Below are positions 9,579-41,744 of a stretch of 41,744 nucleotides of DNA, in pieces. The stretch is from Candidatus Hermodarchaeota archaeon (GTDB lineage Archaea > Asgardarchaeota > Lokiarchaeia > Sigyniarchaeales > SOKP01): NCBI GenBank assembly GCA_048885525.1, contig JBHLLP010000032.1:1-41744 (forward strand). Reading direction: 5' to 3'. Position 1 is the first letter of the stretch. The number at the start of each line of letters is the position of its first letter. The notes under the pieces were generated by a model. The model searched no databases, had not been told where the DNA came from, and worked only from the letters and a program-made list of their open reading frames with translations. A program made the position numbers and the translations under genes.

Positions 9579-9689
9579 AGCGGGGTGGGCTAGCCTGGTT
9601 TATGCCGCAGGGCTCATAAGTCGTAGAGCTTATACCCATCTCATTGAGATACCCTGAGATCGTTCGTTCAAATCGAACCCCCGCTACCA
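9579..9689 (+). tRNA. Initiator tRNA-Met(CAT) with a 32-nt intron at 37/38 (9619-9650) and encoded CCA
   Basis: A1:U72 acceptor AGCGGGG/CCCCGCT, CAGGG/CCCTG anticodon stem with three consecutive G:C pairs, TTCAAAT T-loop, BHB central helix CTCA/TGAG, 3' ACCA. Confidence 0.93.
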
Positions 9690-24065: not shown

Positions 24066-24227
24066 TGCAGGGAGTGGGATTCGAACCCACGAAGAGCTAT
24101 CTCACCGGATATCTCATAAATTATTATGTTAATCAACGGATAATATAATAATCAGATCTTGAGTCCGGTTATTTAGGATTAATATCCAAAAAAGTCCGGC
24201 ACCGTTGACCAACTTGGTTATCCCTGC
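24066..24227 (-). tRNA. tRNA-Leu(CAA) with two introns: 32/33 (24163-24193, 31 nt) and 37/38 (24111-24157, 47 nt)
   Basis: GCAGGGA/TCCCTGC-A acceptor, long variable arm, GTGGG-TTCGAAT-CCCAC. Removing two BHB introns (CCGG/CCGG and CTCA/TGAG helices) gives CCGGA-CTCAAGA-TCCGG. Confidence 0.9.
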
Positions 24228-33497: not shown

Positions 33498-33611
33498 CTC
33501 AGAATGGATTTTTAAATGTTATTATATAATTTAAATAACAATTGAATATTAGAGAAAAAGCTAAATATTATATTTAATAAAAATATATATCAATAAAAAT
33601 ATCAAAGAAGC

Positions 33612-33763
33612 GCCTCGGTAGCTCAGCAAGGTAGAGTACCGCTTCGGTGTGCCTAAAGCACCCGGCTAAGGTAATTTTGATTTACCTCCGGAAGTTAACC
33701 GGGCGGTCGCATGTTCGATTTTCCATCTAAATAATAGGTGGATCGGAAACCATGCCCGGGGCG
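33612..33763 (+). tRNA. tRNA-Asn(GTT) with three introns: 22/23 (33635-33656), 33/34 (33668-33693), 59/60 (33720-33749)
   Basis: Spliced: GCCTCGG TA GCTC AGCAAGGTA GAGC A CCCGG CT GTT AA CCGGG CGGTC GCATG TTCGATC CATGC CCGGGGC G. Each intron is a hairpin with a 4-bp helix and 3-nt bulges; G73 discriminator. Confidence 0.88.
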
Positions 33764-34164
33764 CTAAATAATTCTTCACTTTTTTTAATATTAATGAATT
33801 CTTATTAAACTGATCATTTTTTTGTGGAAATTTTAATTTAATTTCACCATATTCTATAATAATTTGAAATTTGTTTGGTAATCATGTTATGCTTTTGCCA
33901 GAAATTCCCCCAATTATGACGATGAGAGAATAAATTTGTTCGCGAGATCCTTTCTTTTTTGGAGTTTAGCAATTCTGTTACTGATAGATTCCAATTTTGA
34001 GAAATCGCTTCCTAAAGAATTGAATTCGCCATTTTTTTAAATTTTTTTTTCATTACATGTAATTTTATAGGATTTTGATGAGTTTTTACCTTAAGGATAT
34101 TGAGAAATTTACGTTTAAAAATGAACAAAGTGCCTTTAATGTGACCCTAAATTATAAATTTTTG

Positions 34165-34301
34165 TGCTCCTGCCGGGATTCGAACCCGGTTGCCGTTTCA
34201 TGTCGATGATGACATGAGAAAGTCGGCGGGGTGAAGGCCCGCTATGTTTCCACATTAGGGTTGCTACCAATTATGACTTGGCCGTGCTACACTACAGGAG
34301 C
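34165..34301 (-). tRNA. tRNA-Glu(TTC) with two introns: 22/23 (34247-34276) and 48/49 (34190-34221); C at position 33
   Basis: Spliced: GCTCCTG TA GTGT AGCACGGCCAA GCAT A GCGGG CC TTC AC CCCGC CGAC CCGGG TTCGAAT CCCGG CAGGAGC A; acceptor and D arm are typical of archaeal tRNA-Glu. Confidence 0.85.
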
Positions 34302-41379: not shown

Positions 41380-41481
41380 TGGACCTGACGGGAATTGAAC
41401 CCGTGACCTCTTGAATGCAAGTCAAGCGTTGTAGGTAGGTACAACAACGAACCCAACAATCTTCCACTGATCTACAGGCCC
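41380..41481 (-). tRNA. tRNA-Ala(TGC) with a 30-nt intron at 24/25 (41429-41458)
   Basis: GGGCCTG/CAGGTCC-A with G3:U70, CTTGA-CTTGCAT-TCAAG, TTCAATT T-loop; intron removal restores the GATC/GATC D-stem. Confidence 0.88.
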
Positions 41482-41670
41482 CGCTTTTTTACATTTTTTA
41501 TTTCTATTAAAAACATTAATAGTTAAAATCTTTTGCTTTTTCAAAGTGAATAATTAGTATTTTCTCAAAAAAAAAAAATTTTATGAAAATATAGTAATAT
41601 AATAGAAAATTAAGGTAAAAGTTAATTAAGAACTCACCTAAGAAAAGATTTATTTCAAATTTAATATTAA

Positions 41671-41744
<74 letters not shown>

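Follow-up and report, generated by a model that had tools for sequence, protein, structure and literature searches.

A tRNA-Asn(GUU) gene with three predicted introns in a Promethearchaeota genome

The tRNA-Asn locus and its flanks

The window analysed in this work is the whole of a 41.7-kb contig (C32) from a genome of the lineage Promethearchaeota (a Loki-type Asgard archaeon). The assembly is a draft MAG of 3.58 Mb in 87 contigs, with a GC content of 29.4%, a completeness of 99.3% and a contamination of 3.4%. A tRNA-Asn(GTT) locus of 152 nt is found at 33612-33763 on the plus strand, where four exons (23, 11, 26 and 14 nt) are separated by three inserts (22, 26 and 30 nt), the inserts making up 78 of the 152 nt. 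They are placed at tRNA positions 22/23 in the D stem, 33/34 in the anticodon loop and 59/60 in the T loop, with none at 37/38. A preliminary description of this stretch had given coordinates, insert lengths, helices and bulges for the locus, and all of these are present in the sequence. The features are the following.

33557-33579, plus strand: A/T-rich upstream box AAAGCTAAATATTATATTTAATA, 23 nt, unique in the genome
33609-33611, plus strand: 5' leader AGC, complementary to GCT at 33763-33765, the pairing including the discriminator G73
33612-33634, plus strand: exon 1 (E1), tRNA positions 1-22, with the acceptor 5' strand, D stem 5' strand, D loop and G22
33635-33656, plus strand: intron 1 (I1), 22 nt, position 22/23, relaxed HBh' motif
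33657-33667, plus strand: exon 2 (E2), 11 nt, positions 23-33, with the D stem 3' strand, position 26, anticodon stem 5' strand, C32 and U33
33668-33693, plus strand: intron 2 (I2), 26 nt, position 33/34, relaxed HBh' motif
33694-33719, plus strand: exon 3 (E3), positions 34-59, with the anticodon GTT, anticodon stem 3' strand, variable loop, T stem 5' strand and T loop to U59
33720-33749, plus strand: intron 3 (I3), 30 nt, position 59/60, full hBHBh' motif
33750-33763, plus strand: exon 4 (E4), positions 60-73, with C60, the T stem 3' strand, acceptor 3' strand and discriminator G73
33780-33786, plus strand: T7 run, 17 nt past the 3' end

Cutting each insert after the second bulge base had been proposed to yield a regular cloverleaf, which is indeed what the joined exons form: a sequence of 74 nt with 66% GC, called tRNA-Asn(gtt) by ARAGORN. 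Its acceptor stem measures 7 bp and its variable loop 5 nt; the D loop reads AGCAAGGTA, the anticodon loop CTGTTAA and the T loop TTCGATC. The discriminator is G73, and the CCA end is not encoded in the gene. The identity elements for AsnRS are the anticodon GUU and the discriminator G73. Both are found in the spliced product, together with a class I cloverleaf.

Other types of interrupted gene were considered. A split or permuted tRNA gene is ruled out, as the four exons are colinear inside 152 nt. Group I and group II introns are self-splicing ribozyme folds of hundreds of nucleotides; both were ruled out for inserts of only 22-30 nt that gave no match to an Rfam intron model at E-values up to 10.

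The upstream box ends approximately 32 nt before tRNA position 1 and is shared, at 4 mismatches or fewer, by 37 of the 70 distinct upstream regions from orthologues. Orthologues lacking the box usually have a tRNA-Glu gene directly upstream. The box is probably a BRE/TATA-type promoter of the tRNA-Asn gene. As it is unique to the tRNA-Asn locus, it was dropped as a general probe for tRNA promoters. The preliminary description had also proposed that AGC and GCT extend the acceptor stem by 3 bp; this pairing is real in the window and is not conserved among orthologues, where a leader-trailer helix of at least 3 bp is found in only 13 of 71 distinct flanks. The T7 run is probably an archaeal oligo-T terminator, and the trailers of the orthologues are T-rich too.

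A tRNA-Glu(UUC) gene, convergent to the tRNA-Asn gene, lies about 400 nt downstream at 34165-34301 on the minus strand. By eye it carries two inserts, one in the D loop and one at the junction of the variable region and the T arm, and its anticodon loop is CCTTCAC (C33). The gene was missed by both ARAGORN and Rfam. In many relatives tRNA-Glu is located directly upstream of tRNA-Asn on the same strand, and the locus is therefore rearranged here. Two further tRNA genes with introns are present in the window: one at 9579-9689 on the plus strand, reported by ARAGORN as Met(cat) with a 32-nt intron, and one at 24066-24227 on the minus strand, reported as 'Lys(ttt)' with a 78-nt intron. Positions 1-160 of the contig hold the 5' end of a 23S rRNA gene. 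At the opposite end (41670-41744) lies the 3' end of a 16S rRNA gene, which is followed by a tRNA at 41380-41454, also on the minus strand. Both rRNA genes are on the minus strand and are unlinked by about 41 kb.

Splice junctions and motifs

When 60 relatives were searched at the DNA level, the orthologous gene turned up in 33 of the 36 genomes belonging to the same GTDB genus. In addition, exact matches to 25 nt of exon 3 (the last base omitted) identified 61 Asgard contigs, the titles of which are nearly all Promethearchaeota/Promethearchaeia with a few Hodarchaeota or Thorarchaeota. Junctions were mapped by splice-aware alignment of an intron-less reference onto every locus. Intron-less genes are present in two species of the same GTDB genus (L022 and L023) and in a few other genomes; they are colinear with the predicted spliced product, including exon 1 in the case of L022 and L023, and score 64.9-66.5 bits with the Rfam tRNA model (RF00005). 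The colinearity of these same-genus intron-less genes with that product is what sets the junctions, with no recourse to any splicing motif. Given the exon sequence, the junctions of I2 and I3 are unique, and the junction of I1 slides by 0 to +2 nt with the product unchanged.

Conservation was evaluated on 12 distinct three-intron genes, in which the identity is 96.5% for exons and 64.2% for introns. In the precursor structure, 93.4% of the cells of this alignment are standard pairs, compared to 35-44% when the partners are slid by 1-3 columns. Changes on both sides of a pair are seen in 12 pairs, i.e. four of the I2 inner helix, six of the I3 inner helix, one of I1, and the acceptor pair 6:67 (GC/CG/UA). 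The covariation score was reached by none of 500 shuffles. Counts of pairing anchored at the intron ends, made on 24, 33 and 38 distinct introns, agree with the alignment result. For the 33/34 introns, H is invariant (33/33) and the inner pairs 1-4 are paired in 32-33 of the 33 sequences with AT, TA, GC and CG variants, and among 38 distinct 59/60 introns there are 36 whose inner helix begins directly after the 3-nt bulge. The intron helices keep their pairing through compensatory changes. The identity tRNA-Asn(GTT), the three intron positions and the cut sites, as proposed earlier from the letters of the window, are in this way backed by intron-less and partly intron-bearing orthologues and by covariation.

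At each of the three junctions defined by the orthologues, a 4-bp helix is located between two 3-nt bulges, with both cuts after the second bulge base. For I1, the central helix is AGGT/GCCT with bulges AG|A and AA|A and a 6-bp inner hairpin with a UUCG-type loop; the outer helix h has 2 bp at most, with an extra unpaired A, which makes the motif a relaxed HBh'. For I2, CCGG at positions 28-31 pairs with an intronic CCGG, next to bulges CU|A and AA|G and an inner helix of 6 bp; this motif has no outer helix h and is also a relaxed HBh'. For I3, the central helix is TTCG/CGGA with bulges AU|U and AA|C, h' has 6 bp after a U.U mismatch, and the 5-bp T stem serves as h. A motif in the strict sense (H = 4 bp, at least 5 bp in the inner helix) occurs at one pre-specified placement with a frequency of about 4e-4 in the window, and it is present at all three junctions that were set independently by the orthologues.

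Fold stability was compared with that of shuffled sequences, which gave z = -4.9 for the I3 region and z = -4.8 for the whole precursor. The global minimum-energy fold of the precursor contains the I2 and I3 motifs, not the I1 motif. The latter forms as a local minimum, a behaviour that would be compatible with co-transcriptional folding. If the three BHB motifs are formed together, the predicted energy is approximately 18 kcal/mol above that of the minimum-energy fold. In its minimum-energy fold, I3 forms a central helix of 5 bp and a UUU bulge, and an alternative A.U pair must open for the orthologue-defined motif to form.

Gene finding, splicing enzymes and the proposed processing

The unspliced gene is missed by ARAGORN both with and without the -i option. 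It is also missed by the Rfam tRNA model at the gathering threshold, at E-values up to 10 on a 400-nt region, and in the whole-genome search. The suspicion that default finders miss this gene thus holds for ARAGORN and for the Rfam tRNA model. Genome-wide, Rfam gave 24 tRNA calls and ARAGORN with -i gave 34, of which about 30 are credible. The search for an intron-less tRNA-Asn elsewhere, suggested in the preliminary description, revealed no credible candidate in the 99%-complete assembly using Rfam, ARAGORN -i and blastn-short; the latter, run with the spliced sequence, found no other exon copy in the genome. Two spurious candidates were discarded: an ARAGORN 'tRNA-Asn' with a 782-nt intron on contig C17, which is an AT-rich false positive (27% GC in the exons, poor arms), and an 18-nt exon-like match on contig C65, which has no tRNA shape.

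Furthermore, we carried out a blind scan in which any BHB-like motif was excised from the GC islands of the genome before ARAGORN (without -i) was run. This locus alone was recovered as Asn, and with exactly three excisions. The scan recovered about 18 tRNAs in total, being incomplete and no measure of the intron burden of the genome. Asn codons (AAU/AAC) make up approximately 6.1% of the codons in long ORFs and no other tRNA-Asn was found, therefore the gene must be productive. As the assembly is a draft MAG, a second tRNA-Asn gene may be unassembled.

Tools of this kind overlook other tRNA genes of the genome too. No genes for Leu, Phe, Tyr, Trp or His tRNAs were called by Rfam or ARAGORN in the 99%-complete genome. 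From the few tRNA calls and these five uncalled amino acids it follows that about one in three tRNA genes of the genome escapes detection, presumably because of multiple introns. Gaps in the tRNA sets of Asgard genomes have been read as a sign of undetected disrupted genes (PMC5829648).

The genome encodes two EndA paralogues (PF01974) as well as RtcB. The EndA on contig C2 can be aligned over its whole length with the catalytic alpha subunit of Aeropyrum pernix EndA (E = 8e-36) and shares with it the loop residues K44 and R46, the triad Y125/H133/K164 and, in addition, R157 and W183 (A. pernix numbering); the roles of these residues in the A. pernix enzyme with its Crenarchaea-specific loop have been described previously (Hirata 2011, PMC3241643). 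The EndA on contig C9 has kept the Tyr and the Lys and has a Ser at the position of the catalytic His of M. jannaschii EndA. A paralogue of this kind, without the His, has the pattern of a putative structural beta subunit. The host EndA is thus probably an (alpha-beta)2 heterotetramer, and an (alpha-beta)2 EndA with this loop (L1) has been reported for Asgard archaea (Kaneta 2018, PMC5829648). By gene content, i.e. an alpha-like EndA, a His-less paralogue and RtcB, the host encodes a predicted endonuclease for relaxed motifs and an RNA ligase. Judged by motif, product and host enzymes, the three inserts belong to the archaeal EndA-spliced (BHB) tRNA introns, a class assignment made at the level of prediction.

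The gene anatomy, the junctions, their conservation and covariation, the presence of the enzymes and the absence of a second tRNA-Asn from the assembly are all observed in these genomes. On this basis we consider, with a probability of roughly 0.93, that the locus is a functional single-copy tRNA-Asn(GUU) gene, the three introns of which are cut by EndA and the exons of which are joined by RtcB. Transcription, cleavage, ligation and any order of intron removal would belong to the following proposed course. A precursor of about 150-190 nt would be transcribed, probably from the conserved upstream A/T box. EndA, presumably as an (alpha-beta)2 enzyme with a Crenarchaea-type loop, would cut each insert after the second base of both 3-nt bulges, its substrates being one full hBHBh' motif (59/60) and two relaxed HBh' motifs (22/23 and 33/34). 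RtcB would ligate the four exons, and RNase P, a 3' nuclease and the CCA-adding enzyme would complete the 74-nt tRNA.

It is very unlikely that the gene is real with at least one junction different from those given here. The main candidate for such a difference is I3 taken as a 28-nt piece (TCGA/TCGG, bulges UUU and AAA), which would leave an enlarged T loop. Minimum-energy folds favour this shifted register, and the product of a 28-nt excision is also accepted by ARAGORN as tRNA-Asn. However, a shifted register would yield a T loop of 8 or 9 nt, whereas the intron-less orthologues and those with a 59/60 intron all have the 7-nt T loop TTCGATC, for which the junction is unique. The position of the inner helix directly after the 3-nt bulge in 36 of the 38 distinct 59/60 introns likewise speaks against it, and the 28-nt register was rejected on the evidence of the orthologues.

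That the locus is a decaying pseudogene, with a working tRNA-Asn in an unassembled or more fragmented gene elsewhere, we regard as highly improbable. The strong constraint on the exons (96.5% identity, and the acceptor pair 6:67 covarying as GC/CG/UA) argues against decay, as do the compensatory changes that maintain the intron helices and the occurrence of the same three-intron architecture in at least 9 distinct sequences from other genomes. No other exon-like piece with a tRNA shape was detected by blastn-short in this genome. In favour of the pseudogene reading are the draft state of the assembly and the certainty of other hidden tRNA genes, as Rfam finds 24 tRNA genes only and those for Leu, Phe, Tyr, Trp and His are uncalled. 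That the inserts stay in the mature RNA and enlarge the D arm, the anticodon loop and the T loop is hardly credible at all: any insert between U33 and G34 would leave the anticodon loop destroyed, and the three inserts lie in BHB-type motifs with cut sites that restore the orthologous sequence exactly. Nothing specific favours retention, apart from the fact that none of the Asgard tRNA introns of this class has been experimentally shown to be spliced, according to a recent preprint (10.64898/2026.10.13.758758).

Intron variation, origin and comparison with known systems

The number of introns varies considerably among 70 distinct orthologous genes, with 0 introns in 5 genes, 1 in 20, 2 in 9, 3 in 23 and 4 in 11. 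One GTDB genus alone spans 0 to 4 introns in tRNA-Asn, and the intron positions are recurrent. The combination of 22/23, 33/34 and 59/60 found in the window is the second commonest architecture (9 distinct sequences). Inserts of about 60 nt at 63/64 were observed in the orthologous tRNA-Asn genes of L009, L010, L032, L039, L053, L058, L060, L061 and L089. These have no single BHB motif (H = 0-1 pairs) and look like two adjacent or nested introns of about 30 nt, which would make five introns in e.g. L010 and L089.

I1, I2 and I3 are mutually unrelated in sequence, and a search for copies of the three introns elsewhere in the genome found only chance matches in coding or AT-rich DNA. The hairpin core of I1 has homologues in D-arm introns that occupy 18/19 or 14/15 in the tRNA-Asn of other species (z = 3.5-10 against shuffles). 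This family has the core ACCGC-loop-GGTGTGC, and its splice site is at 14/15, 18/19 or 22/23 depending on the species (L057, L052 and L066 as opposed to L047 and the I1 of the window). In most 22/23 introns the first six bases, AGCACC, repeat the downstream exon. In the 18/19 gene L057, a direct repeat of 10 nt, GTAGAGCACC, flanks the insert. The 3' arm of the D-arm hairpin is an inverted copy of the exon repeat.

It is tentatively proposed, as a possibility that we consider doubtful, that the D-arm intron was born by local fold-back or tandem duplication of exon sequence (template switching), followed by sliding as the repeat copies decayed. In a general test for exon-derived introns, local alignments were scored relative to shuffled sequences; the median z was about 0.2 for the 22/23, 33/34, 59/60 and 63/64 introns, and only the 18/19 introns were partly significant. 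As this general test was negative, the duplication idea therefore draws on position-specific repeats and is confined to the D-arm family. The route by which introns arrive is an open question in the 2026 preprint, where fold-back duplication was not tested (10.64898/2026.10.13.758758).

The analysis provides a correct annotation of an essential gene that is missed by two common tools. The tRNA-Asn encoded here is the only reader found for AAU and AAC, which make up about 6% of the codons of this AT-rich genome. The orthologue series, with 0-4 introns in one gene within one genus and with homologous D-arm hairpins at shifted sites, is a compact natural data set on the gain, loss and shift of protein-spliced introns.

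Multiple-intron tRNA genes are reportedly known in Thermoproteales from the work of Sugahara in 2007 and 2008 and of Fujishima in 2010. Genes with up to three introns are the classical case in this order (PMC4033280; PMC4090602). They resemble the present gene in having up to three BHB or relaxed-BHB introns per gene at non-canonical sites, for which an (alpha-beta)2 EndA with a specificity loop is needed. Near-identical introns recur across the tRNA genes of Thermoproteales, which has been read as transposition, whereas the introns found here are unrelated and copies elsewhere were not found. Between the EndA of A. pernix and that of the host, the full-length alignment of the alpha subunit, the loop and the catalytic residues are common, and the host in addition has a second, His-less paralogue. 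Compared with the A. pernix and the Asgard L1-loop enzymes, the host enzyme is known from its sequence only, from which a heterotetramer would be expected.

The closest comparison is with the Asgard archaea themselves, in which 92-95% of the tRNA genes are interrupted and over half have several introns (Valentin-Alvarado et al. 2024, PMC11291895). Up to five introns per Asgard tRNA gene have now been published (Goswami et al. 2026 preprint, 10.64898/2026.10.13.758758; see also PMC11291895), and the earlier remark that triple-intron tRNAs are known mainly from Thermoproteales is thereby outdated. With its Asgard host and its three introns, none of which is at 37/38, the gene described here belongs to the Asgard multi-intron class, for which two introns suffice if one of them is at a non-canonical site. 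It is like the published Asgard cases in having several introns of about 22-30 nt in one gene, mostly non-canonical and including the D and T arms, with BHB-type boundaries, in that standard finders miss genes or some of the introns, and in the recurrent gain and loss among relatives. A three-intron tRNA-Asn gene is ordinary for the lineage, since crowded tRNA genes are already published for Asgard archaea, and the known picture of archaeal tRNA splicing is unchanged by it. It differs from the published cases in that the intron number of a single-copy gene here varies between 0 and 4 inside one GTDB genus, and in that its host belongs to the Promethearchaeota (Loki-type), which is not the named focal intron-rich lineage in either study (PMC11291895; 10.64898/2026.10.13.758758). 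Promethearchaeota are hereby added to the Asgard lineages with three or more non-canonical introns in single tRNA genes.
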